Below are positions 7,825-63,300 of a DNA stretch of 64,000 nt, piece after piece. Position 1 is the stretch's first letter, and each line of letters opens with the position of its first letter. Made by a program: the position numbers and the translations under genes. The DNA lies in contig QPGO01000065.1 in the NCBI GenBank assembly GCA_008632985.1, positions 310,001-374,000 of the forward strand. The letters run 5' to 3'. Source of the DNA: Psammoneis japonica. Its lineage: Eukaryota. The notes beneath the pieces are model-generated. The model was not told the DNA's origin, made no database searches, and saw only the letters and a list, made by a program, of their open reading frames with translations.

Positions 7825-10032
7825 GGTAAAGCACCCAGAAGCCCAGAAGGAAACCAGCAACTTGCCAACGAAACACAGTCACTGCCTGCATGTTGGACGC
7901 AGGACGCACAGCGCTTTCAAGATGAGCCGTAGAAATAGCCTGTACTGTACGGAACGGTCGGAGACATTTCTACATAAAGGAGGGAAGACATTTCTACACT
8001 TATAGGAGGGAAGAAGGGTCATTGCTCTTTGTTACGTTTGTTGTCAGTTGACACTTTCCTCATGGATTCTCATGGATCCTCTTCATACAAATCTACGAGC
8101 GGAACTGAGTAGGGCGGAGCAAGGTCATAATTACAAAAAGTCATTTTCATATACTGCGTTTGCTTCGTATAAAGTACGAGAGAAAGTCATTCAATTGACA
8201 AAACGGTCATTTTCTCAGTCATCCACATGAATCCACATGGTATAAATCTACGTACGAGAAATCAACGGTCAATGCAAAGAGTCATTCTCTAAACTCCGAT
8301 TCCTTCGTACAATGTACGTGAAAAGTCATTGAAAATTTCAAAATTTCCATGAGGATGACTGAGGATTCGTGAGGATCCGTGAGGATCCGTGAGAAAAAAA
8401 ACACACGACACAAACCCGACCCCCCAGGTCGCTGTTATGAGCTTAGCATCCAACGCCGTCGCGATCGCTGCTTTCTGTGGTTGTACTAGTACGTAGGTGT
8501 CGTGTGACTGAACCGTCACTTCAGCTGGGATCGAAGACATGTCGAGACCGCGACGCTGTCCCAGCCGACGGACAGTGGTCCTTGCTACGACAAGAACAAG
8601 AAACCCTGCCAAATCATCGATCTCTTTGGATTGTTGAATGCTCTTTCTCTACCGGAACGCTACATCATCACGACATGCCATCGTCTTGTGGTTTTGGTGA
8701 CGGATGAAATCGAGAGGTACCAGATAGTGGCTGCTGGAAGCAAGGTGAGCTTCTAAAGACAGACAACGAATCTGGAAATGGCTGTCATCTAACTGAGACA
8801 CCGCTCATTGTTTTTACAATTCTATGGGTTTTTTGTGGAATCAATATGCAGACTGCTAAGTTGAAATTTCGAAGACTCACCTTTACGAAGGAGCAGGAGC
8901 AGGCGAAAAAAAGAGGACGCTAAAGCCGCTCGACGCGTTCTTTTCTGTGTTTTGGACACGAGTTTGCGTCTGCTACACCCCTAAATGCCTTACGTGACTG
9001 AGACTTGCGGATTGACCTCGGATGGAAGCTGTAAGAACTTTCGAATGTTTTCAGGCTCTCATTCGAAGTATCCGTAACACGAGGGCTGAGTACAACGTTA
9101 AGCCGGGGAGCGAACCAGGGCGACTGTAGTCGCGAGCGAAGATCTGCTTTAGGACATTGAAACAGAGCTCAAATCTCTTGTTGCTCTTGCTAAGCTCGAC
9201 CCGGATAAGGTAGCTGTGCGTGCAGCTGGAAGTAAAGATGCCAAAGAAATGATGGAGATTGGCGAGTCTGTTAAGATTGTAGTCCAAGATGGCGTTAAAG
9301 CGAATTTGCCGCTCTCGGGATTGATTGACGCTGAGAAGGAACGCCAGTGGTTGCAAAAACAAAGCGAAAAGCTGACAATGGAGATCCAGAAGCTTACATG
9401 GAGATTGAAGTCCAGTGGATTTGTTGATAAGGCACCTGCTGCTGTTGTACAGCAAGCCAGGATTAGCTTGCAACACTGGAAGATCACTTTTCCTAAATCG
9501 AAAGCAGCCTTTTGGCATTTCCCAAGTAGAACTCTCAGATTTCGTCTTATCTATATAGAGCATCTCTCTAGCTAGTTCAAAACTAACTTCACGTCTTCTT
9601 CCCCAGATTTGATGATTGAGGAAGGGGTTATGGCAACTGAATGCTGAACAAGACACATTGTCAAGAACAGAATAAGGCGAGCGAAGCTTACAATTGAACC
9701 GCCGACTATTACAAACTACTCTCCTTGGTAGAGGGAGTTTTAGCATTACTTTCGAACATGCAAACTTAGTCGATTGCAGTTGTACGACGTCGATGGACGT
9801 TCCCACATGCCAGAATTGCAAAACATGCTTTGCATTGACATTCAATGTTCAGATACATCTCAACTTGACTAGAGCACAGTGCTCTACAGAACAAGGCAAT
9901 CAAAGGGAACCGCCGACTGTTGCAAATTACTCTCCCTCGTGCTCATCGAGGGAGCATTGGCATGAGTTTCAAACATGCACACATGTGCTAGATGGACGTT
10001 GCTAGAGGGCCCAGCAGCAACAACATCGCGAC
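7825..10032 (+). repeat. Segmental duplication copy A (inverted relative to copy B 20750-23160 and copy C 37636-39540)
   Basis: Near-identical ORF translations in all three places (e.g. MTLSSWILMDPL..., ...ERQWLQKQSEKL...). Copy A lacks ~320 bp at ~8640 that is present in B and C. Confidence 0.95.
8640..9480 (+). pseudogene. Valyl-tRNA synthetase C-terminal fragment (copy A), intron retained, with stops and a deletion
   Basis: SLPERYIITTCHRLV; gtgag...intron; LDTSLRLLHP*MPYVTE; LIRSIRNTRAEYNV; LPLSGLIDAEKERQWLQKQ...RLKSSGFVDKAPAAVV (ValRS anticodon-binding domain and coiled-coil arm). Confidence 0.85.
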
Positions 10033-12190
10033 GCCTGCCAACTTGCTTGCCAATGCGTTGACATTGCATGGATTGCTGATTTGCTTGGGGTGTGCTGTGC
10101 GTCAAACCGTGGGAGGAGAACTGGTCAGTTATGAAGACATTTACACAAGCGTGACCAGTCCAAGTCCTCATCGGGACCAATGGCATTTGTTGTTCATCGG
10201 AACAAGTGCATGACATGACGTGCAGGATTCAGCATGTTGGTTTGGACCTGGCCGGGAATTGGACCTTGCGTTTTTCGCTGGTCCCTGCGTGCTTGTTTGT
10301 GTCTTCTGTGCAGGTGTTGCTGTTTGAAGGCTCCATTGCACCTGCCAGGTCCTTTGCAAGAGGCGGCCCATGGAGAATTTAAACATGAGCTGTTCTTTGC
10401 CTTACTTTCTCTGAAGCCTTCTTTGGCATGGTGTGGTGGAAGGGTTTTGGAGATTCCGCTCAGAAGGTCTTCCAACTGGCTGCTTGGCCACCTCTGTGCA
10501 ACTGTCATTGTTGCGGGCATTTGCACCTTTCCACTGCCCATTCTCCCACTCTTCAAACTGCTTTTCATTCCATGACTATTGCTGCAGATCACCGGCATCC
10601 CAGCCCATCCAATCAAGATGCGCGTTCTGACGCTGCCATCAACACGCAACTTTCAATCGGCTCTCTGTGTGTCTGCTCGCGATTGTCATGGCATGCACCG
10701 TGGATTGCCAGCTGGACAAGGTGGTTTGTCTCATGGGATCAATGCTGGGTTGTCCCATCTTGGTCTTTCCGCCGCAGAATTTGCAATCGGCTGGATCCCA
10801 ACATTGCACCTTCGAGAACGTTCTTGAATGACGTCGTGTCGGGGATGGGTTTCATTGCAATGGTCGTTGCATCCACAATCACCATTCTCACATGGAACAA
10901 CAGATGAAACAGATGCTCGAGCAACACATCCCTTTCTTTTTAACTGATGGAGACTTCATTGGACTTTAACAACTTTGCCTTGACGTCTTCATTGGATGCC
11001 TTGTCCGGCATGTCTTCATTCAATGCTTGTTTTGGTTCCGGTGACGACCCGCCAGAGTCACAAAGGGGTCCTTTAGAGCCAAAAAGCGAGATTCGCCCGA
11101 GCTCTTTCGAACTTCCTTGCAGGTCCTGCGACATGTGCTCAACTCTCTCCAAGCCAAGCCGTTCAAGCATGGAAGTGGCTTTCTTGCTGCATCGCTGCCT
11201 GCCTTTTGAGCTGGTTTTGTTCGGCCATCACAGCACTTCTTCGTCAATCTGATTTTGTTGCTCAACCATGGATCCTGTGACAAAAGGAGCGGAGAGAGCC
11301 CGTTGTTTGATCAAAGTCCGGTTCATGCTTCGTTCCTTCATTTTGGACATTCCTTCACAACCGCGCATGTAAAACAGGCTCCTTCTCCAAGCAACCATGC
11401 CGACTTGACTTCGCCTCACGTGGCATCATCCCCGGTTCCCTCCGAGTCTACTCGATCATCCACGAAAGCTCTCGGGTTTTGACGTCGACACTGTCATCAC
11501 ACGCCAGCAGCGACGGTTGACGACGATGATTGCACACTCTCGTTTGCGGCCTCTTCTCGCCCATGCCATTTGATGCACTGCTCACCATCGACACCAACAA
11601 ACTCCATTGTGTTGCTGATGACATTATGTACGGCAACAACTGCATTCATTCATCATTGGAGAATTCTGTTTTCAATGACACGTGTGCCAAATTCGCAAAG
11701 ACGTTTCGAGTGGGTCCACAATGTGACGCTCTCCCGTGAGACCTGGGCCCATGTGCGGCATGCGAAGTGTGGCACTTCAGATCTTCCCAGTCGCAGGTCT
11801 ACTCTAGTGGTCTCTCGACAGGAAAGAGTGTGAAGCATCCACTGGTTCTCTTTCACGCACATTGTTGAGACAACTGCTGTCGGTGTTTCCAAGTGACGGG
11901 ACACTGCACCAGCACCAGTGCAAGAATGATGACACTGAAATGCAAGTCCATGGCTCGACCAATGGTTGTTGGACAGCAAATAGTGGCAGGTGCCGTGCAT
12001 CATTGTTGCACATCTTGTCGCTCGAGACGACGTTGATGCGTGCTCCATGTGATTGCAAAATCTTGTCCGCAAAAGTTCAACACACTTCTTCCATTTCTTT
12101 TCTTGGTTGATGGAGGACGAGTTCCAGGTCTCGAAACTGAAAGCCAATGTTGCAATCACAGAACGACTTGCCCGCAATGTCACACCGGTA
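9760..12190. other. TpA-depleted block of degenerate, probably TE-derived sequence
   Basis: Very few TpA. Left edge aligns with TA-rich paralog 20750-21090 and shows directional TA>TG/CA changes. Confidence 0.85.
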
Positions 12191-12726
12191 AGCTTTTTCT
12201 CGATGCGATGCTGATGGTGCTTGCATCTTCAATCTGGCATCCTTTTTTTTGTTTGTGCTCTATCGCGTTCATCTTATCGGTTGTAGGCGTGTGTTCGCCA
12301 TCATGACAAATCAAAAACGTTCGTTACTGGAGCGTTTTTATTATTCAAAGTCATACGCGCTCTTTCTATACCTTATATATTAATGTTTTTTGAAACACAT
12401 AAAAATCATTTGATTAGATGGACTGAAATTTTCCAAAGGGGGTACATCACGATTTTTTTCAGTCGGACTAATCAAATTCAATTTTATATGCTATACGGCG
12501 CATAGGATATAAATTATATCTTCTACGTTGCCATAAAGAAGACTTTCATACCAATCTCATTTCCGTAGATATTGATTGAGACACAGATACGACGACGACG
12601 ACTCTTTGTGTAGGGCCCCTAAAGTAGAACACAACATCGTCAAAAAATACACCGTAGTCCTTACTACCGTAGCCCTAATCTTCTCTAATATAGTAGAGGG
12701 CCATCTACTAGAGTATGGAGTAGGGC

Positions 12727-14098
12727 CTACTTGACTGCTTGCTTCCCTTCCTTGTCAATTACTGGAAAGATTCGCATTGGATGTGCTTCCGTATTGAAGA
12801 CATGCTTGTTTAAAATGTCCACGGGTGTATCTGGATCCTGTAATAAATACAAATACTTGAGAGTCTCTGCCAAGAAGAAGGACTCCATCTTGTCTTGTGG
12901 CGGTCTGTTCACGTCTTGTACATTTTTCAACTGTCCATAGGCAATCTTGGTTTTGCAATACCGCTCGATTGCAGAAAATATTTCCCATCCCCATTCTCGG
13001 TACACTGGATCACCCGTGAGTTGATTGAGAATAAACATGGACTCGACCGCTTCCGGTCTCAAGAGATAATGAGGAGAGCCGTGACCAATCGCAAAGTCCT
13101 CGTCGGGGTGGAACTGAACCCATTCCGCCGAAATACCCGTGTTCATGCGAGCGTACATTTGATAGCACGTGTAGGTAAGAGCCTTTCCAGTCTTGAGGTC
13201 GCGTTGAGCTCGGTCCGAATCAAGGCCTTCCGGGTCCGTGTAGGCTCCAAGCGCGAGCAATCCTAAACGTAAAACAAGAAAAGCAAGCCATGGGATTGAA
13301 CATTCGGACCAACAATACTACCAGCATCAGACAACACGGGAGAAATGCGAAAAACTTACCTCCCATGAAGCAAACCAAATGGTCCATCTTGTGATCGATA
13401 CGAGCACTATTCTTGTCGGCAATGTAGGTGAGACCGGACGGCGTTGACGTGTGTAGCAATTCATCATGCATGCCCTGGATCGCCTTGTCATACATTTTTC
13501 GGTACATCGGTTCCGTCTTTCCGCCCTGCAACCACACCTTGAGCATGTACTCGTAGAAACTGTCCGCCATGGCCCCAAACGTAATTTTCTGATTGGCAAA
13601 GACAGGTTTATCCTGATGGTTCTTGACATAGTAAGGAAAGAGTCCATTTTTGGGTGACACACTGTCCATGATTTCAAAAATGTTGTTTGCTTTTGTGGCG
13701 TATTCTGGTTTGTTGATGGCCTTGGCAAGATACCGAAACTCGAGTTGCAATGTTCCAAACTCGGCAAGAATAGCATTGCCTCCAGCCCAACTAATGTTGC
13801 TTTTCGCCCCCGTTACCAAGTTGATTTGTCCACAGGGAATACCAGATGGTGAGTCGAATGCTTTAAACAATCGCTTTCCCAAATCCGATGCCTTGTCTAA
13901 AAACGCCTTGTCGCCCGACCAATCATACGCCGACAACAATCCGCTCAAACTCCGAATTGTCGTTTCAAAGACAGAGACTCCTCGCCCCGCATGTTCGTGG
14001 CGTAATTCATCCCTCACCCAATCTCTCGCCTTGTAGAATTCGTCCTTGAGTCCCATGAGCCACAAGGTATCCAGAGCATCCACCAGGGTAGTCCCCAT
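12727..14098 (-). pseudogene. GH47 alpha-1,2-mannosidase, 5'-truncated copy 1 (intron 13263-13359); spliced frame open but N-terminus replaced by a PPR fragment
   Basis: [84 protein letters not shown] are GH47 motifs; GTAAGT...TAG intron. Confidence 0.9.
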
Positions 14099-23160: not shown

Positions 23161-23399
23161 AACCAGTACATACTTCTACTACTGTATCGTACAGTGAACC
23201 GACATCAATGTTTGCACGACCTTTTCGATCCGTCGAAGGATGACTATTCTTTTTATCTTTCCCCCTAATCAGACATACTGAGCTCACCATTACGACGTCA
23301 AGTGCTTGTAGTGGGCCTACGACCAGCCTCTTAGGTGGTTCGCTTGCGCGTCGCTTGGTATTTACCGTATGGCGGGTGATGGTGATAGTACGGCCGGTG

Positions 23400-29806: not shown

Positions 29807-30003
29807 CCAGCGCACAGAAGATTTGGCCAGATCATATTCGTCGTCTCGTGATCGATTCTTCTCGTGGTCTTCCGCAGGTGTATCGTCTCACTTCTTCAGC
29901 ATCGACCGCCCTCTCTGCTCGTTAGTAAGGTTGCGGCGCTCTGCGAGACAAGAAGAAGTGCTAACCCCCTTTCTAACGATGCCAAACTGGCGGAGTTATT
30001 ACT

Positions 30004-31356
30004 CCTGGTGGATGCTCTGGATACCTTGTGGCTCATGGGACTCAAGGATGAATTCTACAAGGCGAGGGATTGGGTACGGGATGAATGATTCGTGGCGGGG
30101 CGAGGAGTCTCTGTCTTTGAAACGACAATTCGGAGTTTGGGCGGATTGTTGTCGGCGTATGATTGGTCGGGAGACGAGGCTTTTTTAGACAAGGCGTCGG
30201 ATTAGGAAAGCGATTGTTTAAAGCATTCGACTCACCATCTGGGATTCCCTATGGACAAATCAATTTGGTAACGGGGGCGAAAAGCAATATCGGTTGGGCT
30301 GGAGGCAATGCTATTCTTGCCGAGTTTGGAACATTGCAACTCGAGTTTCGGTACCTTGCCAAGGCCATCAACAAACCAGAATACGCCACAAAAGCAAACA
30401 ACATTTTTGAAATCATGGACAGTGTGTCACCCAAAAATGGACTCTTTCCTTACTATGTCAAGAACCATCAGGATAAACCTGTCTTTGCCAATCAGAAAAT
30501 TACGTTTGGGGCCATGGCGGACAGTTTCTACGAGTACATGCTCAAGGTGTGGTTGCAGGGCGGAAAGACGGAACCGATGTACCGAAAAATGTATGACAAG
30601 GCGATCCAGGGCATGCATGATGAATTGCTACACACGTCAACGCCGTCCGGTCTCACCTACATTGCCGACAAGAATAGTGCTCGTATCGATCACAAGATGG
30701 ACCACTTGGTTTGCTTCATGGGAGGTAAGTCTTTTGCATTTCTCCCGTGTTGTCTGATGCTGGTAGTATTGTTGGTCCTCATTTTCAATCCCATGGCTTG
30801 CTTTCTTGTTTTACGGTTAGGATTGCTCGCGCTTGGAGCCTACACGGACCCGGAAGGCCTTGATTCGGACCGAGCTCAACGCGACCTCAAGACTGGAAAG
30901 GCTCTTACTTACACGTGCTATCAAATGTACGCTCGCATGAACACGGGTATTTCGGCGGAATGGGTTCAGTTCCACCCCGACGAGGACTTTGCGGTTGGTC
31001 ACGGCTCTCATCATTATCTCTTGAGACCGGAAGCGGTCGAGTCCATGTTTATTCTCGATCAACTCACGGGTGATCCAGTGTACCGAGAATGGGGATGGGA
31101 AATATTTTCTGCAATCGAGCGGTGTTGCAAAACCAAGATTGCCTATGGACAGTTGAAAAATGTACAAGACGTGAACGGACCGCCACAAGACAAGATGGAG
31201 TCCTTCTTCTTGGCAGAGACTCTCAAGTATTTGTATTTATTACAGGATCCAGATACACCCGTGGACATTTTAAACAAGCATGTCTTCAATACGGAAGCAC
31301 ATCCAATGCGAATCTTTCCAGTAATTGACAAGGAAGGGAAGCAAGCAGTCAAGTAG
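30004..31356 (+). pseudogene. GH47 alpha-1,2-mannosidase, 5'-truncated copy 2 (intron 30725-30820), with a stop and frameshifts in the first 200 bp
   Basis: Near-identical to the reverse complement of 12727-14088. Indel and TGA at ~30086, 1-nt deletion near 30205. Homology to copy 1 flank continues to ~32075 (vs ~11965). Confidence 0.92.
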
Positions 31357-33449
31357 GCCCTACTCCATACTCTAGTAGATGGCCCTCACGGTAGTACACT
31401 ACGGTGCATTTTTTGACGATGTTGTGTTCAACACAAGAAGAGTCGTCGTCGTTGTATCTGTGTCTCAATCAATATCTACGGAAATGAGATTGGTATGAAA
31501 GTCTTCTTTATGGCAACGTAGAAGATATAATTTATATCCTATGCCCGTATAGCATATAAAATTGAATTTGATTAGTCCGACTGAAAAAAATCGTGATGTA
31601 CCCCCTTTGGAAATTTCAGTCCATCTAATCAAATGATTTTTATGTGTTTCAAAAAACATTAATATATAAGGTATAGAAAGAGCGCGTATGACTTTGAATA
31701 ATAAAAACGCTACAGTAACGAACGTTTTAGATTTGTCATGATGGCGAACACACGCCTACAACCGATAAGATGAACGCGATAGAGCACAAACAAAAAAAAG
31801 GATGCCAGATTGAAGATGCAAGCACCATCAGCATCGCATCGAGAAAAAGCTTACCGGTATGACATTGCGGGCAAGTCGTTCTGTGATTGCAACATTGGCT
31901 TTCAGTTTCGAGACCTGGAACTCGTCCTCCATCAACCAAGAAAAGAAATGGAAGAAGTGTTGAACTTTTGCGGACAAGATTTTGCAAGCACATGGAGCAC
32001 GCATCAACGTCGTCTCGAGCGACAAGACGTGCAACAACAATGCACGGTACCTGCCGCTATTTGCCGTCCAACAACAAGCATGTCTTCAATGCGGAAGCAC
32101 ATCCAATGCGAATCTTTCCAGCAATTGACAAGGATTGTTGTGTTCAACACAAAGAGTCGACTCTCTAAAACAACCACCTGTTCACAAGCACTCATGCACA
32201 CAGCTGCACCTGCCCATTTGCAAGCGCCGAGAGTCAGTCGTTGTCGTTGGGATGTTGATCGACGTGGCGTTTGGGCACTGGTTTTGATTGCCCGAGTCAA
32301 TGCCGGTGAACAATTGTTTTCGTCGTTGCTCAAAACCATTGAGGCCATTTCGTCACAACAAGCCAGAGCATGGGCAACACTTGTTCATTCCCATCGTGCC
32401 ACAGCATTTGCAACAAGACCTTGCAGGGTGTGCCAGAAATTCGAGTGGAGTGCCAGCAGCTGTGCCTTTGGATGCGAATGAAAAGGAAACGCGAGGCATG
32501 CCCGCATCGCATGCACTCAATGACATTCCAGACTTGTGTTCGAGGAGTGTGCTCATGGAGACATCGAACAAACGGGTCTCCCTTGGGCTGGAGGCAGCCA
32601 TGGTTTCTCTCCATTGCACTCATGGGGACCATTTTTTGATGCCGCTGGTTGCGCCTCTTAAGTTCTTGGCATGGCCTTGGGGGAGGTGCGCATGGTGAAT
32701 CTTGGCTGAAGGGCGACAGATGACACTGGGGGCAGGATCCGAACATTCTTTTCTGAATCGCAACGCGTCTTCCAACGGGAGCTTTCGGTCCTTGTTTAGC
32801 ATGTGGATCATGTGTCACTGGACGGTCTTGATGGCATGAACCAAATGACTTCGACAAGTTTGGGTGCGGATGCAGAACAAAAAAAAGAGCTCGATTCCCT
32901 GGGCGAATGCATCATCGCGAAATTGAGCAGCAGCGTGTCGCGTTTCACAGTGCTTTTACGCCATGTTGCTGCACACCGGACCAGAATGATGGAGACATGC
33001 GAGTCGATGCAGTTGCACCTGCTTCTGCCACCACATGCAATCTGCACGCTGCTAACCATCGTGAGGGATGACCAGGGATGACGCTGCGCAAAAGGTGCCA
33101 TCCATGCTCTCTGTACGAGAGGGACTCGGCAAACCTTGATTAATCCATGAATGGCCAACAAGACCAAAACAGCGGACCTGCCAAGTTGCATGCGTTGAAC
33201 GGCGGCATGGACAGCAGCTCCAATGCCTCAGTCAGTCACTCGTCCTGCCAATCTCGGGCGGAAGACTCGTGAGTTTGCAGTTGACAAGGTGGAGATCCGC
33301 AAGACCAGTCAGCAAGCCAATGTTGGGTGAGTGACGTCTCGAGCGAGTGACAAGTGCTCACATCAAGAACGCGAGGCTGGCTTTGCACTCCAATCTTGTT
33401 GGGAAGCGAAGGCGAGTGCAACAGGTGCAGCTTCTCAAAGGCTTGGCAT

Positions 33450-33590
33450 CAGTGTGTCTCGGCAGGCACGGACTTGAGCTGCTTGCAACCAGAGAGACTC
33501 AGTTGTTGAACCTCCGGGAGCCACTTCGCATCTGACGTCAAGGCTGCAATGTCCACATTTGAAAAATCGAGCGAAACATCCTGCCTTGCT
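33450..33590 (-). pseudogene. Possible leucine-rich-repeat fragment
   Basis: VSLDFSNVDIAAL...LPEVQQLSLSGCKQLKSVP fits LxxLxLxxCxxLxxxP. Confidence 0.35.
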
Positions 33591-35198
33591 TGTCGTGTTT
33601 CATTGTGGTGGCCAATCTCGCTCGCGACACGGGCTTGGCCCATGCGGCAAGAGCAAGTGTGGGGCTTGGCACAATTTTGACTCGCTGCAAGTAGAAGTGC
33701 AACACACGTTCAATCCGTTCAATGCGAGATTCTCTTCCATGGTAGAATTGCGGATTGTTGTGCTGTGTTTTGACACACATTGGAGAGCAACACCCGAAAT
33801 CGCAGTGTGGAAGCAGGAAAAAAGAGTTCTTGGCCAAGAGATGTCTTGTTTGGAGAGTGCGAGCTGCTGTCGCCGCCGTTCGAGTCAATGCTTCACCGGG
33901 TTGGGTGAACACTTGCCAAACGTTTTGACTGCTTTTGGTTGCTCTGCCAACCGTCTTTCTTTGTTGTCAAGGCTTTCTCGGCGATCGGATGATCATTGAA
34001 TGGAGGCGTGGGAGGAGGGAGAGGCCAGTGGATCGATTTGTCTGCTGGGACTGCGAGCTTTGTTGGGGTTGGGACATTGAATGGCATCAAGATGGGGCAG
34101 TCGGCCTCGGAGGATTGCATGACCCTCTGAAGGTGCTCGTGGGTTTTGGGTGGTGGACGTGCAGGTCCACCTAGAATCGGGTCGCCACTGTCAGGCAACG
34201 ACCGTGCGTCCCATTCTTGCTTGGGCTCCTGTCCGACGCTTCTGCACTTGGCTACCCAGTGGTCCATTTCTTGTGGAATTTGCGACAAAGAGGGGTGTGG
34301 AAACTTGACTGTTGACCCCATCTTCGAGTGGGGCACTTTTTCGTAATCTTGCTGCTTGCAAACGCATCGTGTCTGGGACCAAGAACGTGAAGCAAATTCC
34401 GATTTCTAAAGCTGCAGCAGCACATGCATTTCGGCAGAGGGGAATGTTGGCGGTTGGGGTGATTTGCCAAGGCTTGGGCACTGTCTGGCTCTCAAGAGGG
34501 ACAAAAGCCTGTTTCTGCATGACTCCGAACCGATGGCGTGACTCTTTTGCATTGAAATGTCGAACCGGGACATCACAAAAGATCTGTGGACACAAACAGC
34601 TCGAAAACCATCATTCCACTTCTCTTGGAGCCCAGTGGATCTGGCCAAATTGATGAAGCAGGGAGTGTGTCATCTCCGTCACGAGGACACCAAGCATGGC
34701 AATGTGGGACCTCTTGCTGTGGCACTTGGTGGCTGGACCGCACTGGACGGGACCGCTGCAACGAAGCAAATGAATGACTCGCAATTGCTTCCTGTTGCCT
34801 TTGTCAGTGACACTGAGTCGCTGTTTTGACGATGAGTGGCACTCTGTGTCGCACATTGTGTCTTGTCAACGAGCGTCTCTAGGTGACAATCAACAGGGTG
34901 CGTGGTGCCAAGCGGTGCATTCTTTGAACACGTGTTCATTTGTGATGATTTCTTGTCATTAATCTGACAATTGTGGAGCTTGTCTTTCATGCTCTCTTCC
35001 TCCCCTGGGATTGCGTGACAGATCGCATGAACTCTCGGAACTGATGGGTTGTGCGACTCGACAGAATCGTCACTGTGAGTCGCACCAACTTAGTGTGGTT
35101 CGGGCATCAGAGACACCAACCTCGTTTGAGTTCTTGGGCGCATTCCGCGATTCCAGAGGCAAGAAAGAAGAACGGTTAGACAAGCTCCACGTAAACCT

Positions 35199-37112
35199 TT
35201 ACAACATCTCACTCTCCATTGCATCCTCCTCCTCTGCGTTCATGGGGTCATTGGTCTTCAATGTTTTGGCTCCAATGCCACGAAGCTTGCACATCCGTTC
35301 ATGTTTCCTCTGGCGTCGGATCTTTTCAATGGACTTCCGTTTCATTGTTTGAATGTTCTTTTTGACATTCTCATTGGACTTGGGAGGGGACCGCTTGAGC
35401 TGATGACGGGGTGTTGGTGCTTTCTTTCGTCGAAGCAACTCAAGAGCGAAAGGATTTGGTTTGCCGGGCTCGTGGAACTCAAGCTTTCTCCTTTTTCTTG
35501 GAGCTTCCTCAGCTTCAATGCAACGTTTCAATGACTTGCGCTCTTCATTCAAAGACGGCTTTTTGGCTTGCGATGAGCTTGTTCCAGGTTGGTCGTGGAG
35601 CGACGGAGTGCTTGTTTCAGGCTGTGTTTGGAGCGGCGGAATCCTGTTGCTTGCTGCGAGAAGTGTTTGGATCATCTCGGCAATCACTGCAATGCTTTCC
35701 ACGGTGCTTTTCTTGGCGGGCATTTTCATCACCAAGTCGTCGTTGCACTCACTCTCTTTGTCTGTGCCATTCAAGCAGGGAGTCGAGAATTCATAAAAAT
35801 TAGGATGATGGGCGCTGAAAATGCCACCGGCATCCCTCCAACAGTGGAGTTTGAAAAGGCTTCTGAAACAGCTCAACTTCTCCTCGTTCTCGACACGGGT
35901 GCGATGTTGTCGGCAAGCGACCTGGATCCTCATGACGGCGGCGACTTTCTTCTCGTGTTTGCAACTCTTCGCAATGAAGCTTTGGAAGGTGACCTGGACA
36001 GTTGCAGCAGCACCGTTCATCATGGCAACTCGCTGCAGGATGTTTCGGAAAGCGCAATGTTTTCGGCAAGCGACCTGGATCCTCACGACGGCGGCGAGTT
36101 TCTTGTCGTGGTTGCGGCGCTTGACAATGAAGCTTTGGAAGGCGACCTGAACAGTTGCAGCAGCAGTGTTCATCGTGGCAACACGTTGTAGGATGTTTCG
36201 AAAAGTGCGCTGGATTGTTTTGAGCGCGTTCACCTTTTCGTTGACCATGTTGAAGGCTGCAGGCACGGAATGGACAATCGTGGTTGACAAAACAGGCGAT
36301 GGAGCCTCGATGAGGGCAATCGGATGGGTGGCGTTCCGGCGGATTGGACGAGCTTGAGTGTTGAGCGTGAAGCTCGCATTGAATGGGAGGGAGGGCGTGC
36401 ACTTTTTCCGATTGAATGCAACGTTGCATCTTTGGTTGGGTGTTTCCACATTTGTGGCGAAGTCGCATGTTGACAGCTCGAGGATCGCCATCACATCGAT
36501 GGATGGACCCGAGGACGTGTTGCTGTGCTTGAGTAAAACATTCGCTTGAACGCCTGGAGCGAAAATACGAAGCTTCTTCTTGAGGTTGTCAATCACGACT
36601 TCTTCGAAATCGTCAGGACGCGAGTCGGAGGAGGAAGGCTTGAACACAAGCTCAACGAGAACCGAGTTTGTAGAACAAGAAATGGCAGCACCATGGATCA
36701 TGCCAGACACAGCAGCAACCATTTTCTGCGTGCAGGTGGGAAGGATTTCCGCAACGGCTTGCGCAGTGGCTTCGTTGGCGGCGGCAGGAAAAACGCAGAT
36801 TTTCTCAACACGAGTCTTGACCACAAAACGAGCAAGATTCTGAACGCAACATTTGAACCAAGGTGCGGTCAACCCAATGAAGAAGACAGTGTTGCCATTG
36901 GAGTGCGGAACAATCGAAAGAACTTCTTGAACAGTTGGGGCCAGATCAAGTTGAAACGTGCCGACTTGTTCATCGTCGAAAAGCTTCTTCGAAATCGACT
37001 TCAAAGCAACGAAAACCGAGAATGCGGCAATGTCAACATTGCCGATAAAAGCAACGCCACCGGCAAGGATGGTCGCAAAGAGAACAATAAAGATCATGAG
37101 GGAGAGCGACAT
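35199..37112 (-). CDS. 637-aa ORF with IQ-like calmodulin-binding repeats, hypermutated (probably a non-functional copy)
   Basis: ATG start, hydrophobic N-terminus, IQRTFR, VQVAFQSF, IQVACRKH, VQVTFQSF, IQVACRQHR; internal ~135-bp duplication; only 1 Tyr in 637 aa. Confidence 0.7.
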   Translation of the reverse strand: MSLSLMIFIVLFATILAGGVAFIGNVDIAAFSVFVALKSISKKLFDDEQVGTFQLDLAPTVQEVLSIVPHSNGNTVFFIGLTAPWFKCCVQNLARFVVKTRVEKICVFPAAANEATAQAVAEILPTCTQKMVAAVSGMIHGAAISCSTNSVLVELVFKPSSSDSRPDDFEEVVIDNLKKKLRIFAPGVQANVLLKHSNTSSGPSIDVMAILELSTCDFATNVETPNQRCNVAFNRKKCTPSLPFNASFTLNTQARPIRRNATHPIALIEAPSPVLSTTIVHSVPAAFNMVNEKVNALKTIQRTFRNILQRVATMNTAAATVQVAFQSFIVKRRNHDKKLAAVVRIQVACRKHCAFRNILQRVAMMNGAAATVQVTFQSFIAKSCKHEKKVAAVMRIQVACRQHRTRVENEEKLSCFRSLFKLHCWRDAGGIFSAHHPNFYEFSTPCLNGTDKESECNDDLVMKMPAKKSTVESIAVIAEMIQTLLAASNRIPPLQTQPETSTPSLHDQPGTSSSQAKKPSLNEERKSLKRCIEAEEAPRKRRKLEFHEPGKPNPFALELLRRKKAPTPRHQLKRSPPKSNENVKKNIQTMKRKSIEKIRRQRKHERMCKLRGIGAKTLKTNDPMNAEEEDAMESEML

Positions 37113-54895: not shown

Positions 54896-55800
54896 CCGGT
54901 AGAAAATCTGTGGCGCACAGATTTCGGTTCAGATCTTGTTCACCAGATTTAGCACAGATTTTCAAGGGTCCACAGAAACAGGCACAGATTTTCAAAAAGC
55001 ACAGATTGTTGACTGGTGCTGCCCAGGCTCTGGATTTGTGCCACTGAAACTGCCACACACAAAATGATGCTGAAACCAAAATTAAAAAACCACAGAATTG
55101 ATCCTCCCCCTCGTCCTTTGCGTCACTTCTTCCATCAAAGCCCTCCGACTTTTTGAGCACAGTTGCCGCATCTTCACCCACTGCATTGTTGATTGAGCTG
55201 AGCAGTCTGTCCCTGCACTGTGTTGCTGTTTCAGCATCAACGATGGCTGTGCATGGGTCGGGGTCATCAGTTGGATGTTGGATCCTTTTGCAGCAAGTGA
55301 TCAAGAAGAACTTGCAAACAAGTTCCTCTGGCACCTTCTCCCATGCATCCACTGTCCGCTGTGCAATGAGTTGCCTTGATGGAGCAACAGGATTCCCAGC
55401 AGCATTGACAGGGGCTTCCAGCATGTGTGAATCATGCAGATCCTGACAGAATGTCTTCCACATTTTGTTGATCAAAATGGCAAGAGGCTGGGCTTTGGGT
55501 GCACACAACTCTTCCCGCCATTGTCAAGAAGTGCAGCTTGTGGGTTGGAGCTGCCCTGCCTTTGACACATTGCTTCAAACACCCCACAAATTTGTCAATG
55601 AGAGTGCTGCTGGCATTTCCATTTTCCTTTCCCATCTGAGTCAACAACTCCAATGCCTGGAAGAATGACGTGTGACCCAACATGTCGTTTGTGAGCACAC
55701 CTGATGAGTTGGCAGTCTTTGACACTGTCATCACTGTCTTGTCTTTGGAGAGACACTCGCTGCCGTGGCTGTCTTTTTTGTGTGTTTGGTCATCTCACAC
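54896..55800 (-). mobile_element. Degenerate pogo-like (DDE_1) DNA transposon end and transposase remnant
   Basis: PKAQPLAILINKMWK...MLEAPVNAAGNPVAPSRQLIAQRTVDAWEKVPEELVCKFFL resembles the DDE_1 C-terminus (QPLD...NK...PSRQ...WV..AW..IP). Begins TA|CCGGTAG with subterminal cacagatt repeats and a hairpin at 54904-54924. Partner TIR not found. Confidence 0.7.
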
Positions 55801-56134
55801 ATGTGAAGGGGCACAACGCTGCTTCAACTTGCGCTGATGTGTCTCTCACCTTCACTCCCTGACCACCAGGGAGCTTCTGCCCAGCTCCCAATTTCCAAGT
55901 GCACAACAAGTTGTGCTGCTTCTTCAATCCATGGCAGAACCAAGTTTTCAACTGCTTCATTCAGTGCTGCTCTGGTTGTGTGGATGAGGGACAGAGCTTC
56001 GTTGCCTCTCTGAAAATTGTCGAGTGGGCTGTTCTGCATCCCGCGCTGATGCTCAACTCAGCAGGCCTTTTCTCAAGCTTGCTTTCCACTGCCTTCAAGG
56101 TGTTGCCAACCTTGTGGCCCCATTTCTCCTCAGT

Positions 56135-56570
56135 GTGAGCAGTGGCAGATGCAAGGCATGCTCTTTGTTTGCTCAGAGAAAGAGCCTCCAATTTTATGCC
56201 GTGCAGCAACAACCCCTCCTTTCCTTTCTTGTGAGCATCTGAAACCAGCTTGCATGTCCTTTTGTGTGTCTCATCTTTGCAAGATCTGCTCCAGGACATG
56301 TGGAAGTTATTTTGGACAAGACAGGTGAGGTCTTTCAGTTTGGAGCCACTTGAGATTGCCTCATGAGCAGCAATGTGCCGCTTGCTGGTTTGTTGCTTTC
56401 CACAGGTTGGGCTCCAACCTGCTGACAACCCAAGCAACTGCCAATCTCCACGCTGCATTGTGGCAAGATGAATGGCTTCAGAAACATCACAAGAGATGCC
56501 AGCTGCTCCTCTTTTCCTTGAGGCATGAATTGCTTCTACACAAGCATGTTGCTGTTGCTTGTGTCATTGC
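56135..56570. repeat. Diverged direct repeat of 61970-62230 plus 62870-63020
   Basis: Shared ctgctccaggacatg..gaagtt..ttggacaagacagg and tggcaagatgaatggcttcagaaa..tcacaagagatgccagctgc. Confidence 0.85.
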
Positions 56571-57369
56571 CGTTGTCATCAACCAAACTCATGATGCTCT
56601 CCACTCAATCCTTCTGGCTTGAAGCAGCACTGTGTGCTGGCTTTGACTCATTGCTTGATGGCCTCAAAAAATGGGTGGCTTTGTGAGTGACCATTTTCTT
56701 CCTCTTCTGCTTGGGAACAGTGCTGCAGAAAGAGCACATGCATGGCCCATTTGCCATTGTCACCCCCCAAGTTTTTGGCCCATTTTTTCATCTTTGATTC
56801 ACTTGTGCTGGCACTGTCATCTTCAGTGGCTTTGACACCAGCACTGAAGCTGTCATGGATGGGCAATGGGCAGGTTTTTGTCTCATCAAACTCACCCTTG
56901 TGCAGCATTTTGAACTCAGCTAGAAACACTTGGTGCTTGATTGGTTTGCATGGCAGAACACAATCCTTGCAAAGAAGGTCCTCCCATTGTGGCATGGCAA
57001 CATTTGTTTGTTTCCTTTGTGCAAGATGGGTTCTTGTCAGAGAAACACTTTCTTGTGGCATCATGTGCCGCCGCCCACACTGGCTTCAACAGGGCTTCAT
57101 CCAAAGCTGCACTCTCCTTGGATGCCATTGTTGTGGCAAAGACATGATGAGTGGAACGTTGCTGCAAAGAAATGATGTGCAGACAACTGCCACCAAAAAA
57201 CTCAAAAACTGACATCATGAAGTAGACTTTTTGCAGTTTTCTGCAGGCAATCTTGGCACAGTCTGTGCAATGCTCCAACTGGATGGGAGAGAGAAGACTG
57301 AAGAAGATTCTGACTTCAAGAACTGAGCAAGGCACCAACAACCATGTTTGGCACAATTTGTCACCACAG

Positions 57370-60300
57370 TTGTCTCTGAGGGCATTCAAAAGTTCCCAAG
57401 GTGAAGCCAGGGAACACTTTGAGAGCAGTGGTTGAGAGCAGCAAGGCTTGTCTGCTGGCGCAGCTGTGCAACACCAGACAAAGCCTGCAAAGTGAAAGGG
57501 CATCTTGATGCAACAAACCAACCCAACAACAGCAGGCTGAGAGCATTGAAGGTCTCCGGTGCAACCCAGGGACCACTTTGAGAACAGTGGTGGAGCACTG
57601 CAAGGCTCATCTGGTGCAGTTGCATTCCCCAGTCACTTCATCCATGCCAGAGTGAGAGCTGCAAGACACCTGCTGGCTCCAAAGCGAAAGGACACCCTGG
57701 TGCAACCAACCAAACCACCAACTGCAAATTGAGGGCATTGAAGGTCTCCAAAGAATCCCAGCAAACATTTTGAGAACAGTGGTGGAGTGTTGCAAGGCTC
57801 ATCTGGTGTGCAAATGCAATGCCCCAATCACTTGGTCCATGCCAAAATGAAATGAGAAAAATTCCCAACTGCTCCACAGTGAAAGGACACTGTGATGCAA
57901 TCAACAAAACCCAACAGCTGTGGGCTGAGAGCATTGAAAGTCTCCAGAGGAACCCAGAAAACACTTTGAGAATGGCAGTGAATTGTTCTTTGAGAATGGC
58001 AGTGGAGTGTTGCAAGGCTTGTCTGATGCGCACATGCAATGCCCCATTCACTTGGTCCATCCCAAAGAGAAAGGAGAAAAATTCCCAAATTGCCCTGGAG
58101 TGAAAGGACACTGTGGTGCAAACAATCAACCCTGCAACTGCAGGCTGATGGCATTGAAGCTTTTCAGAGGAACCCAGAAATCAATTTTAAAATGGCAACT
58201 GAGCACTGCAAGGCTCATCTGGTGCTGTTGCAGCCACCAGTCACTCAGTTCATGCAAGAGTGCTCTCAGAGCTGAAAAACTCCAAACTCCTCAGAGAAAG
58301 AACACACTGGTGCACCAGCCAACCCAACAACTGCATGCTGAGGGCATTGAAGGTCTTCAAAAGGACCCAGGGAACACTTTGAGAATGGTGGTGGAGTGTT
58401 GCAAGGCCCATCTGTTGCAGTTGCAGCCATCAGTCACTGAATGCATGCCAGAGTTTGAGCAGAACAACCCATGACTCCACAATGAAAGAACATCCTGGTG
58501 AAACCAAGCAGCCAACCCAGCAACAACTGCTTGCTGAGAGCACAGAAGGACTTCACAGGAACCCAGGAAAGACTTTGACAATGGCAGCAGAGTGTTGCCA
58601 GGCCTGTCTGGTGCAGTTGCACCCACCAGTCACTGAATGCATGCCAGAGTGAGAGCAAAAAAACTCCTGACTCCTCAGAGAAAGAACATCATGATTCAAC
58701 CAATCAACCCAATGCCTGCATGCTGAGGGCATTGAAGGTTTTCAGCAGAACCCAGAGAACACTTTCAGAATGGTGGTGGAGTGTTGCAATGCCCACCTGG
58801 TGCAGTTGCAGCCACCAGTCACTAAATTCATGAAAGAGTGCTCAGAGTGGAAAAACCCCTGAGGACTCCTTAGAGAAAGAACACCCTGATGCAACTGACC
58901 AACTCAAGAACTGCTTGTTGAGGTCATTGAAAAGCTCCAGAGGAATGTTGGGAACACTTTGAGAATGACAGTGGAGTGTTGAAGGGCTCATCTGGTGCAG
59001 GCGCAGCCCCAAGTCACTTGATCCATGACATGGTGAGAGCTGAAATTCCCAACTCCACAATGAAAGAACACACTCATGCAAACAACCAACCCAACAACTG
59101 CAGGCTGAGGGCATTGAAGGTCTTTTGAGGTGCCCACCAAATGCTGTGAGATTGGTGGTGGGGTGTTGAAAAGCCCATCTGGTGCAATTGAAACCGCCAG
59201 TCACTGAGTGCTGCATGCCAGTGTGAGAGCAGAAAAACTCAAAACTCTTCAAAGAAAGAACATCCTGATTTAACCAACAATCCCAACAACTGCATGCTGA
59301 GGGCATTGAAGGTCTTCAGCAGAACCCAGAGAACACTTTCAGAATGGTGGTGGAGTGTTGCAATGCCCACCTGGTGCAGCTGCAGCCACCCGTCACTAAA
59401 TTCATGAAAGAGTGCTCAGAGCAGAAAATCCCCTGAGGACTCCTCACAGGTGGAAAGAACACCCTGATGCAACCAACCAACCCAAGAACTGCATGCTGAG
59501 GTCATTGAAGGTCACCAGAGGAATGTCAGGAACACTTTGAAAATGGTCATGGTGAAGTGTTGAAGGGCTTGTCTGGTGCAGGTGCAGCCCCAATCCACTT
59601 GATCCACGACATGGTGAGAGAGCTAAAATTCCCAACTCCACAATGAAAGAACACACTCATGCAACCAACCAACAAAACAGCTGCAGGCTGAGGGCATTTA
59701 AGGTCTTTGAAGGCACTGCAAAACACTGTGAGAATGGTGGTGGAGTGATGCAAGGCCCATCTGGTGCAGCTGCAGCCACCAGTCACTGAGTGCACGCAAG
59801 AGTGCTCTGAGCAGAAAAACTTTAAACTCCTCCTTGGAGAAAGAACATCATGATGCAACCAACCAACCCAACAACCCCACAGGCCAAGGGCAAGGAACCA
59901 AGAAAAGGCTTTCAGAATTGTGGTGGAGTGTTGCAAGGCCCATCTGGTGCAGTTGCAGCTGCCAGTCTCTCAAGAATTCATGCAAAAGCATTGAGAGCAG
60001 AAAAACTCCACCAAACTCTGCAGAGAAAGAACACCCTGACACAGCCGACCAACCCAAGAGCTGCATGCTGAGGGCATTGGGGGTCTCCTGTCAAACTCAG
60101 GGAACAAATTGAGAATGGTGGTGGAGTGTTAAAGTGCTCATCTGGTGCAGGTGCAATCCCCAGTCACTCAATCTGTGACATGTTGAGAGCTGAAAATCCC
60201 AACTCCACATTGAAAGACACATTCATGCAACCAACAAACCCAACAACTGCAGGCTATGGGCATTGAAGGTCTTCAGAGACACCTGCAAAACACTGTGAGA

Positions 60301-63300
60301 ATGGTGCTGGTGGAGTGTTGCAAGGCCCATCTGCATGCCAGAGTGAAAGCAGAAAAACTCCCAACTCCTCAAAAAAAGAAAATCCTGACATGCAAGCAAC
60401 CAACCCAATGACTGCACCCTGACAGCACCGAAGGTCCTCAGAGGAACCCAAAGAACACCAAGGGCCATCTGGTGCAGTTGCAGCCACCGCCAGTCACTCA
60501 ATGCCTGCAAGAGTGCTCAGAGCAGAAAACTCCAAACTCCTTGGAGAAAGAACAACATCATGATGCAACCAACCAACCAACCTGACAACCAGCGCCGGCT
60601 GAGATCATTGAAGGTCTTTAATTTGAACCCAGGGAACACTTTGACAATGACAGCAGAGTGTTGCCAGGCCCATCTGTCGCAGTTGCACCCACCAGTCACT
60701 GAACGCATGCCAGAGTGAGAGCAGAAAAACTCCTCACTCCTCAGAGAAAGAACATCATGATTTGACCAATCAACCCAATTCCTGCATGCTGAGGGCATTG
60801 AAGGTCTTCAGCAGAACCCAGAGAACACTTTCAGAATGGTGGTGGAGTGTTGCAATGCCCACCTGGTGCAGCTTCAGCCACCAGTCACTAAATTCATGAA
60901 AGAGTGCTCAGAGTGGAAAAACCCCTGAGGACTCCTTAGAGAAAGAACACCCTGATGCAACTGACCAACTCAAGAACTGCTTGTTGAGGTCATTGAAAGG
61001 CTCCAGAGGAACGTCGGGAACACTTTGAGAATGGTGGTGGAGTGTTGAAGGGCTCATCTGGTGCAGGTGCAGCCCCAAGTCACTTGATCCATGACATGGT
61101 GAGAGCTGAAAGTCCCAACTCCATACAAAAGAACACACTCATGCAAACAACCAACCCAACAACTGCAGGCTGAGGGCATTGAAGGTCTTTGGAGGCACCC
61201 ACAAAACAGTGTGAGAACAGCAGCAGAGTGCTGCAAGGCCCATCTGGTGCAATTGAAACCACCAGTCACTGAGTGCTGCATGCCAGTGTGAGAGCAGAAA
61301 AACCCAAAACTCTTCAAAGAAAGAACATCCTGATTTAACCAATCAACCCAACAACTGCATGCTGAGGGCATTGAAGGTCTTCAGCAGAACCCAGAGAACA
61401 CTTTCAGAATGGTGGTGGAGTGTTGCAATGCCCACCTGGTGCAGCCACCAGTCACTAAATTCATGAAAGAGTGCTCAGAGCAGAAAATCCCCTGAGGACT
61501 CCTCATAGAAAGAACACCCTGAGGCAGCCAACCAACCCAAGAACTGCATGCTGAGGTCATCAAAGGTCACCAGAGGATGTCAGGAACACTTTGAAAATGG
61601 TGGTGAAGTGTTGAAGAGCTTGTCTGGTGCAGGTGCAGCCCCAATTCACTTGATCCATGACATGGTGAGAGAGCTGAAATTCCCAACTCCACAATGAAAG
61701 AACATGCTCATGCAACCAACCAACAAAACAACTGCAGGCTGAGAGCATTGATGGTCTTTGAAGGCACCCACAAAACACTGTGAGAATGGTGGTGGAGTGA
61801 TGCAAGGCCCATCTGGTGCAGTTGCAGCCACCAGTCACTGAATGGATGCAAGAGTGCTCTGAGCAGAAAAACTTCAAACTCCTTGGAGAAAGAACATCAT
61901 GATGCAACCAACCAACCCAACAACCACAGACCAAGGGCAAGAGAAGCCAAGAAAACACTTTCAGAATGTCAGTGTGAACAGTGGCAGATGCTAGACATGC
62001 TCTTTGTTTGCTCAGAGAGAGCCCCTCCAATTTCATGCTGTGCAGCAACAACCCCTTTTCTCCTTTCTTGTGTGCATCTTAAACCAGCTTGCGTGTCCTC
62101 TTGTGTGTCTCATCTTTGCAAGCTCTGCTCCAGGACATGCAGAAGTTTCTTTGGACAAGACAGGCAAGGTGTTTCAGTTTAGAGCCACTTGAGATTGCCT
62201 CATGTGCAGCAATGTGCCACTTGTCAGTTTGTTGCTTTTTCCTTTGTTGTTGCACCGCCAACCCTTCTTGGTGGCTTTTTTGAGGAATCTTGGATTTCTT
62301 GTCCTCCAGATTTTGAGATTGCTTTTGCAACATTGTTTCAGTGTTTCTTCTTGTTGTGCTGCCCAAATGTTGAAATGTGTGCAGCTCTGCCAAAGGTGGA
62401 TTGCCCTGTTGCACTTCATGTTGTGTGCAATCCCATGTGAACAAAAATTGGGGTGCATCATTGGCACATTGGTCTCATGCATGGAAAAAACAAAAACATC
62501 CAAGCAGCACCACACACTTGCCGAGCCTCTGCATTGGCAAGTGTGGCATCAGCCCCAGCCATTTTTGCCTCCCCTTCATTGCTCGTTTCCTGAAACTTTT
62601 CTTTGTCACAACCACAATGAGGGTGTGATGCTGCTGGCCTTTTTCTGTTCTATCTTTTGGCCTTGTCAGCAAGGGCCCCAGGTGCATCATGTTGGTGTCA
62701 CTGGCAGCACTGCCACCACCAAGGACATGGCAGCATCCAAGGATGTCCTCAGTTTTGTTGCTCTTGATGCCACACATTCATCAAGAGTTGCTGCCCAAAA
62801 CTCTCAAGAGCTGGGGACTCTTTCCAATTTTCCGTCTCCCAATTCATTGCCATTTTCACAAGTTTGGCTCCACCCCAACAACCCAGCTGCCAATCTCTGT
62901 GCTGTGTTGTGGCAAGATGAATGGCTTCAGAAATGTCACAAGAGATGCCAGCTGCCCCTCTTTTCCTTGAGGCACAAATTGCTTCCACACAGGCATGTCA
63001 CTGTTGCTTGTGTCATTGCCAAAAAATTCCCAAATTGCCCTGGAGTGAAAGGGTGCAATCAATCAACCCTGCAACTGCAGGCTGATGGCATTGAAGGTCT
63101 TCAGAGGAACCAAGAAATCAATTTTAAATTGCCTTGGAGTGCTGCAAGGCTCATCTGGTGCTGTTGCAGCCACCAGTCACTCAGTTCATGCAGGGGTGCT
63201 CTCAGAGCAGAAAAACTCCAAAAACTCCTCAGAGAAAGAACACCCTGATGCAACTGACCAACTCAACAACTGCTTGTTGAGGGCATTGAAGGTCTCTGGC

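Follow-up and report, generated by a model that had tools for sequence, protein, structure and literature searches.

Loss of both TpA from a templated repair insertion in a diatom resembles regional TpA-directed hypermutation

Introduction

Regional hypermutation directed at TpA has been described once so far, in a 2026 preprint on the chlorarachniophyte Bigelowiella natans (Mettrop et al., bioRxiv 10.64898/2026.01.13.699255). The sections of that preprint drawn on here report 231 new mutations in two integrated viral regions, almost all of them A>G/T>C. In its mutation-accumulation lines all the GC-biased mutations fell on TpA, at rates about 1000-fold over background. The same sections describe clusters poor in TpA and rich in CpA/TpG across the genome and propose an ADAT2-like deaminase as the agent, citing DNA activity for some ADAT2 proteins only. 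Our literature searches retrieved no diatom report of TpA depletion or TpA hypermutation, and the B. natans preprint was the only relevant document. Here we describe a locus that looks like a diatom case of this kind of process, with TpA changed to TpG/CpA over a region. The window, i.e. the whole stretch of DNA that we analysed, spans 64,000 nucleotides of Psammoneis japonica (contig QPGO01000065.1, positions 310,001 to 374,000). The element in question is a short insertion at 32073-32160, hereafter the filler, which was copied from a fragment of a GH47 alpha-mannosidase gene into a TpA-poor block and lacks both TpA of its source.

Three other processes serve for comparison. Repeat-induced point mutation (RIP) of ascomycete fungi changes C to T at CpA in duplicated DNA, leaves an excess of TpA and creates stop codons. 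ADAR-type hyperediting changes A to G in double-stranded RNA, tolerates U or A on the 5' side, and marks one retro-copied strand. Templated insertions at repair junctions, made by polymerase-theta-mediated end joining or by template switching (fork stalling and template switching, FoSTeS, or microhomology-mediated break-induced replication, MMBIR), are short copies of nearby sequence joined at microhomologies, often in several pieces.

Results

A filler copied from a GH47 gene fragment lacks both TpA of its source

The filler and its templates are the following:

32073..32134, + strand: filler piece 1, which copies 62 nt of the GH47 3' coding end in direct orientation, with both TpA gone
31273..31334, + strand: source of piece 1 in GH47 copy 1, encoding ...NKHVFNTEAHPMRIFPVIDKE..., with TpA at 31290-31291 and 31322-31323
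12749..12810, - strand: the same 62-nt source, without differences, in GH47 copy 2 (inverted)
32135..32160, + strand: filler piece 2, about 24 nt from the GH47 3' untranslated region (3'UTR), with one extra T at the joint
31419..31447, + strand: source of piece 2 in the GH47 3'UTR, starting 63 nt past the stop codon 31354-31356

The initial annotation had described 32073-32134 as a copy of 31273-31334 whose sole two differences fall on the sole two TpA. The ungapped alignment confirmed this: 60 of the 62 positions are identical, without gaps, and the differences are an A>G at 32091 (aaTAcgg>aaTGcgg) and a T>C at 32122 (cagTAat>cagCAat). The source has exactly two TpA, both of which are lost in the copy, and none of the 58 non-TpA positions is altered. 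The changes lie one on each strand, within 31 nt of each other. On the strand bearing the changed A both sites read TAC, site 1 being TACG and site 2 TACT. Two random substitutions in 62 nt would both turn the two TpA into TG/CA with p = 2e-4 if substitutions are uniform, or 9e-4 if two thirds of them are transitions. The loss of 2/2 TpA also differs from what is found in the same duplicated segment outside the block, where 2/79 TpA became TG/CA (Fisher exact test, p = 0.002) and 5/82 changed in any way (p = 0.006).

The annotation had also noted a piece of 31420-31445 next to the first copy, and this match was retrieved, with positions 32135 to about 32158 corresponding to about 31419-31447. 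Relative to copy 1, piece 2 has an extra T and lacks one GA. Its version agrees with the UTR of copy 2 and with 21 letters of one contig of sequencing run X1, from the same organism; hence, the UTR of copy 1 probably changed later.

The coding context gives the direction of change

The open reading frame (ORF) at 30163-31356 encodes a GH47 alpha-mannosidase (Pfam, E = 1.8e-103), whose best relatives are diatom proteins at 60-67% identity. Of the 120 diatom GH47 homologues listed, 113 have the motif NTEAHP and the remaining 7 lack the matched region, in line with the earlier claim that NTEAH is conserved in the family. The filler reads NAEAHP, and tblastn recognises it in frame as the GH47 C-terminus, residues 647-667. 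Because the Thr of this motif is kept across homologues, the A of its codon is ancestral and the G of the filler derived. At the second site both gene copies of the window have GTA (Val), and Val is common among homologues, though not invariant, so that polarity there follows from parsimony only. The claim that TA is ancestral was thus upheld for the first site by conservation and for the second by parsimony.

Both GH47 copies are partial, starting at about residue 250 of the homologues, and neither is intact. In copy 1 the reading frame is broken near 30090-30202 by an in-frame stop and a frameshift; in copy 2, conserved positions carry Gly>Ser, Tyr>Cys (TAT>TGT) and a further Gly>Ser. The annotation had called for an alignment with the parental gene. 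The differences hold in the alignment with the GH47 copy beside the filler, but this copy is a truncated, broken fragment rather than the parental gene. The damage leaves the polarity argument intact, since the two copies do not differ within the 62 nt. A contig of another run, X2, carries the copy-2 variants and lacks the 96-nt GT..AG interval 30723-30818, as in a spliced transcript or a processed copy.

The filler marks where a segmental duplication ends

Comparison of the window with itself revealed a 2.07-kb inverted segmental duplication, dupA, with copies about 18 kb apart:

30000..32075, + strand: dupA copy 1, with the 3' 60% of GH47 and its 3'UTR, followed by an AT-rich spacer and by 285 nt at the start of the TpA-poor DNA
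11965..14090, - strand: dupA copy 2, followed in block 2 by unrelated sequence that is likewise TpA-depleted

The normal part of dupA carries 16 plain substitutions over 1389 aligned positions. The homology ends at 32075/11965 and the filler begins at 32073, which leaves a 3-nt overlap, AAC, as microhomology. This position at the end point of a duplication had escaped the initial annotation. The templates lie 650-800 nt upstream, at offsets of 800 (piece 1) and about 715 nt (piece 2), and AAC (3 nt) and GA(T) overlap at the joints. The copy is thus a templated filler of two pieces, placed at the junction of the duplication, and as such belongs to ordinary repair biology. It resembles known templated repair insertions in its place at a rearrangement breakpoint, its nearby templates, its two pieces, its microhomologies of 2-3 nt and a short snap-back palindrome. 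The latter, perfect over 12 nt (32153-32164), straddles the filler's right-hand end; its length is insufficient for significance by itself, and it may have arisen by snap-back during the repair event that made the filler.

TpA depletion is confined to blocks and follows a T-A-pyrimidine rule

We defined TpA-depleted blocks by dinucleotide odds ratios (rho) per kb and by the spacing of TpA. The filler is in the third of the four:

1..2999: block 1, TpA and CpG both depleted
10033..12189 (from about 10003 by the ratios and spacing): block 2, TpA-depleted
31790..37046: block 3, with 29 TpA over 5257 nt (rho_TA 0.07-0.11 per kb), enriched in CpA/TpG and with near-normal CpG; contains the filler
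54951..64000: block 4, rho_TA 0.02-0.08, CpG 0.02-0.23, diverged satellite from about 57.4 kb

Across the four blocks rho_TA ranges from 0.02 to 0.2, compared with about 0.6 in the rest of the window, and CpA/TpG ratios lie at 1.4-2.3. Strand-symmetrised ratios give the same picture for TA (0.10 and 0.06 in blocks, 0.62 outside). AA and AT are not lowered, rho for AA being 1.24-1.27 in blocks and 1.13 outside. CG is lowered in blocks 1 and 4 only (0.15). At the edge of block 1 the two dinucleotides recover together from one kb to the next (rho_TA 0.03, 0.07, 0.20, 0.43; rho_CG 0.08, 0.27, 0.60, 0.83). This joint recovery over about 2-3 kb, towards position 4000, fits a shared chromatin domain. 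The array of block 4 (57400-64000) is made of units of about 190 bp with about 70% identity and higher-order periods near 390 and 2070-2300.

The TpA that survive in blocks are a biased sample. Their 95 sites comprise 56 YTAR, 18 YTAY, 15 RTAR and 6 RTAY (Y, pyrimidine; R, purine), against 307, 470, 480 and 538 among the 1795 TpA outside (chi-square, p = 9e-23). Relative to background density, survival is 0.42 for YTAR, 0.087 for YTAY, 0.071 for RTAR and 0.025 for RTAY. This pattern matches the one that independent hits on each strand would leave if T-A-pyrimidine were lost about 5x faster than T-A-purine. The target rule TAY proposed by the initial annotation is thus borne out both here (YTAR makes up 56/95 survivors in blocks and 307/1795 sites outside) and in the duplicate comparison below. 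The most enriched product in blocks is TGC (1.53x and 1.81x). TAT is lost as strongly as TAC, and TACG is found among the survivors at 11629, 32957, 33114 and 36566.

Blocks 2 and 3 share no homology beyond the 285-nt edge when compared as purine/pyrimidine-coded 30-mers. The absence of such similarity rules out that they are two decayed copies of one sequence. Many long open frames are found in the blocks, because the process acting on TpA cannot create stop codons (TAA and TAG are removed, or TAA becomes TGA). One of them has 672 codons (35202-37217, - strand), with a hydrophobic N-terminus, two IQ-like repeats and only 2 Tyr left. It starts outside the TpA-poor block, where 57 of its codons lie, and X2 contigs align to it at about 91-95% identity. 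The IQ-like repeats are a 153-nt tandem duplication (35901-36208) with 21 inter-unit differences, which are mixed and uninformative.

TpA loss extends into host-derived DNA at a block border

A second duplication, dupB, allows a comparison at the border of block 2:

9752..10032, - strand: end of dupB abutting block 2, downstream of the valyl-tRNA synthetase 3' end; its normal copy is 20750-21031

dupB has three copies (7832-10032, 20750-23173 and 37636-39523) of about 1.8-2.4 kb, 96-99% identical, one of them inverted, which contain the 3' end (C-terminal arm) of valyl-tRNA synthetase and the region downstream. At the end next to the block, 16 of the 25 TpA of the normal copy have become TG/CA, 1 is otherwise changed and 8 are kept. 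There are no changes in the reverse direction (sign test 16:0, p = 3e-5). TpA changed at 17/25 sites, compared with 5/229 other positions (Fisher exact test, p = 2e-16), and TpA>TG/CA accounts for 16/22 substitutions. On the strand concerned 14/16 conversions obey TAY>TGY. Where the TAY context is one-sided, 6/7 changes fall on the predicted strand, or 7/8 when the filler is included (p = 0.07).

The effect fades with distance. Farther from the block (8634-9751), 47 of 52 TpA are kept and 5 are converted, with 1 change in reverse. In the part with three copies, the first copy, far from the block, has 3 TpA losses and 2 gains; this comparison is a control only. A three-way polarisation with the dupB copies was discarded as a polarity test, the second and third copies being mutual closest and nearly identical to each other. 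TpA loss thus reaches about 280 nt into host-derived DNA downstream of the valyl-tRNA synthetase gene and is followed by a sparser tail. The border effect in these duplicates shows that the process works in place and extends a few hundred bases into host-derived DNA.

The process appears much faster than background mutation

The initial annotation had made the process both fast relative to background and near-saturating. The first part is supported by the dupB end, where the change per dinucleotide is roughly 50-fold higher at TpA (an indirect figure, taken from duplicates). In dupA, 77 TpA outside the block are common to both copies and 2 differ as TG/CA; at the block edge that both copies share, 2/4 TpA differ. 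Pooling the young DNA associated with blocks, about 21/35 TpA have changed. These comparisons of duplicates support a process that would be much faster than background. The data do not support near-saturation: the filler offers n = 2, the dupB end retains 8/25 TpA, and four TpA in TAY context survive near the filler (see below).

Contigs of the same organism reproduce the block

One run set of the same organism contains this stretch, and no RNA run was listed for it. We aligned the Logan contigs of run X1, which covered all 30 bins of 30000-38000 at word depths of about 50-460. On block 3, 115 of the 292 aligned contigs have 95-99% identity and 73 have 90-95%, and the contigs are TpA-poor in the block. 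In 32161-37100, 3 of the 25 listed differences between X1 and the window restore TpA (40 of 343 differences were listed). Several adjacent double differences in block 3 are TG<->CA, for which an ancestral TpA or CpG are both possible. Six single TG<->CG differences imply that CpG decay is also ongoing there. An X1 joint of 32158 to 37567 was considered as a deletion allele and rejected, since one of its sides has 21 letters and a common UTR motif suffices to explain it.

Other features of the window

The other host genes of the window are a carbamate kinase, a riboflavin kinase, a disulphide oxidoreductase, a protein kinase and the valyl-tRNA synthetase 3' ends. The window is nuclear DNA of a diatom, in which recent segmental duplications have left a patchwork. 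Part of the GH47 3'UTR, 100 nt long (31439-31538), repeats at 37544-37643 (91%), directly before the third valyl-tRNA synthetase 3' end, and the two repeats bracket about 6 kb including block 3. An X2 contig joins a copy-2-like 3'UTR at 31436 to 37556, with 10 other letters between. This suggests that a tail-to-tail arrangement of GH47 and valyl-tRNA synthetase without block 3 exists somewhere in the sample. Upstream of the GH47 fragment lie imperfect direct repeats (29404-29816) with periods of about 152 and 322 nt and 75-95% identity; several differences between their units are TA vs CA. The sole N of the window is at 22673, inside the second copy of dupB.

Discussion

An in-place process as the best explanation

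Taken at the level of sequence, our comparisons show a regional, strand-symmetric change of A:T to G:C at TpA, with a preference for a 3' pyrimidine. We infer adenine deamination in DNA by a putative TadA/ADAT2-like enzyme. The best explanation of the filler, which we regard as probable, is a process that erases TpA in place within a domain, through such a putative deaminase route. A 2.07-kb piece with the 3' part of GH47, its 3'UTR and the edge of a TpA-poor block would have been copied, in the opposite orientation, to a site about 18 kb off. The machinery of repair or replication would have changed template twice at the right-hand junction, copying 62 nt and then about 24 nt through microhomologies of 2-3 nt, in the manner of polymerase-theta end joining or MMBIR. 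The filler would thereby have landed in a kb-scale domain where TpA is converted to TpG/CpA at the A of 5'-T-A-Y-3' on either strand. Both of its TpA would have been converted afterwards, one per strand, with all else unaltered. The likeliest route would be from adenine to hypoxanthine in DNA, by a putative TadA/ADAT2-like enzyme recruited to the chromatin domain; such an enzyme is a candidate because the T at -1 and the pyrimidine at +1 fit. The process would erase Tyr codons as well as TATA-like and AATAAA-like signals.

Several observations weigh against this explanation. The filler offers only two sites and its age is not independently fixed, the 0/58 changes at non-TpA positions bounding its divergence below about 5%. 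Within 283 nt to its left, in the same copy, the TpA in TAY context at 31852, 31858, 32048 and 32058 survive, at distances of 15-220 nt. Changes at 0/4 sites there and at 2/2 in the filler imply that exposure was uneven, or that the filler changes arose differently, e.g. while it was single-stranded during repair. The polarity of the dupB end is taken from adjacency to the block, with no outgroup. The dupB comparison alone does not fix the direction, as a RIP-like CpA>TpA change in the other copy gives the same table; the coding-based polarity of the filler is useful precisely because that table is direction-blind. No listed contig of runs X1-X3 demonstrably spans 32091 and 32122. Finally, the 50 ORFs of at least 110 aa in the four blocks gave no Pfam hit at E<=0.1 above cut-off and no viral or transposon domain, and the 672-codon ORF had no homologue in a search of 5.8 billion proteins of near lengths or in IMG/VR, and no usable hit in the ESM Atlas. 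Heavy mutation may hide the origin of the blocks.

Alternative explanations

The alternative that survives best keeps the in-situ process and moves its target to the thymine of R-T-A, through a mispairing modification of thymine or patch synthesis at WA by a polymerase-eta-like enzyme. Polymerase eta has a WA>WG bias, and thymine hypermodification occurs in some protists. TpA is self-complementary and a T>C at R-T-A is the same event as an A>G at T-A-Y, so that sequence cannot separate them. A polymerase acting at WA is at odds with the AA ratios, which are not depleted in blocks. With its T at -1 and pyrimidine at +1, the context is similar to the natural TadA motif, TACG (PMC5630033), which speaks for adenine; four TACG survive, however, so that a G at +2 is not required. 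On balance we hold a thymine target to be unlikely.

The blocks could instead be mobile or viral DNA that was hypermutated before integration, as an extrachromosomal, RNA or cDNA intermediate, and that had captured the GH47 piece beforehand. The transitions into and out of the blocks are rather sharp, and both dupA copies share the left one, at about 31790. The X1 contigs at 90-99% on block 3 would fit a multi-copy family or a second haplotype, and the targets reported in the sections drawn on from the B. natans preprint are integrated viruses. However, the templates of the filler lie in cis, 650-800 nt away, and the filler is at the end point of a local duplication. TpA loss also extends into host DNA downstream of valyl-tRNA synthetase, both strands are changed, and the dupA copies kept diverging at TpA of the block edge (2/4 sites) after their duplication. 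In addition, the Pfam search of the 50 ORFs and the homologue searches revealed no viral or transposon domain in the blocks. We consider editing before integration to be quite improbable. The data also speak against two related routes. Sense-mRNA editing with subsequent RNA-templated repair is ruled out for the filler, whose two changes lie on opposite strands. ADAR-type hyperediting carried into DNA disagrees with the undepleted AA and with changes on both strands within 31 nt.

An artefact, either of base calling at modified bases or of assembly at the two variants, is in our view very improbable. The listed contigs do not demonstrably span the two positions. Errors, however, would have to respect the borders of kb-scale domains, and the Thr>Ala change sits in an otherwise perfect copy; independent X1 contigs match the block at 95-99%, and only 3/25 listed differences restore TpA. 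The weakest alternative, in which the two differences are chance substitutions or came with a diverged GH47 paralogue outside the window, can draw on there being just two sites and on the third GH47-like arrangement of the sample (the X2 contig joining 31436 to 37556), but chance faces the p of about 2e-4 to 9e-4 for two random changes, and a paralogue faces the TA at both sites of both window copies and the ancestral Thr, which leaves the polarity the same.

Comparison with described systems

The likeness to B. natans, as far as the sections drawn on from the preprint go (10.64898/2026.01.13.699255), concerns the mutation and its confinement. Changes there are A>G/T>C at TpA and yield TpG/CpA; here they make up 2/2 changes in the filler and 16/22 at the dupB end, with 0 in reverse. 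Both cases are confined to kb-scale regions of low rho_TpA and high CpA+TpG, which here are the four blocks, and in both many affected sequences have no annotation. The differences are several. One organism is a chlorarachniophyte (Rhizaria) and the other a diatom (stramenopile). The process was observed directly in mutation-accumulation lines in the former, whereas here it is deduced from duplicates. The targets there are insertions of nucleocytoplasmic large DNA viruses (NCLDV) and virophages; here the blocks gave no viral or transposon signature, and the changes reach host-derived DNA. Depletion is far deeper here (0.02-0.1, against 0.45 in the NCLDV region). Those sections of the preprint's main text mention neither diatoms nor the base 3' of the target, on which its supplementary tables may bear, whereas a 3' pyrimidine preference was found here. 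The new elements are thus the diatom case, the T-A-pyrimidine rule and the changes in host-derived DNA.

RIP is likewise a regional, dinucleotide-specific transition process that degrades nuclear stretches and can leak into flanks. Yet it makes TpA from CpA, and here TpA is destroyed. RIP is triggered by duplication, whereas here duplicates of 2 kb with 98-99% identity remain unaffected outside the blocks. It creates stop codons, which the process described here cannot do. TadA, ADAT2-ADAT3 and the base editors derived from TadA offer a chemical parallel: they convert A to inosine, read as G, after T/U, with Tyr>Cys as a typical recoding. The TACG motif (PMC5630033, in the part drawn on) compares with TACG at site 1 of the filler and TACT at site 2. 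The natural enzymes, in contrast, act on RNA loops, and here TAT is hit as strongly as TAC.

We also looked at 80 metagenome loci around GH47 relatives (467,890 nt, 1591 windows of 1 kb), which showed no block-like TpA desert; these loci are mostly short and genic, and this is no evidence of absence. Only 3 of the windows have rho <0.25, all in one contig of 60% GC (L039) that is TpA-poor throughout.

Implications

A diatom case would extend regional TpA-directed hypermutation to a second branch of eukaryotic supergroups, one with genetic tools. The T-A-pyrimidine rule is sharper than what was available and narrows the enzyme candidates. Because a fragment of a host gene and the region downstream of another were changed, our results suggest that the chromosomal domain, rather than a foreign origin, decides what is targeted. 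The filler amounts to a natural experiment on a small scale, in which a known ancestral sequence was placed into a domain that erases TpA. Young insertions and duplicate ends at block borders should make the rate and specificity measurable genome-wide, without mutation-accumulation lines. A broader proposal is tentative, and we hold it with more doubt than belief. Diatoms may carry a system based on a TadA/ADAT-like DNA adenine deaminase, directed to chromatin domains and acting on 5'-T-A-Y-3' of both strands, which would rewrite kb-scale domains, change whatever sequence is inserted into them and spread a few hundred bases into host DNA. If this were true, silencing would come from the erasure of Tyr codons and TA-containing signals and not from truncation. 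Its presence in a stramenopile and a rhizarian would then make the system an old genome-defence module of the SAR (stramenopiles, alveolates and Rhizaria) lineage.

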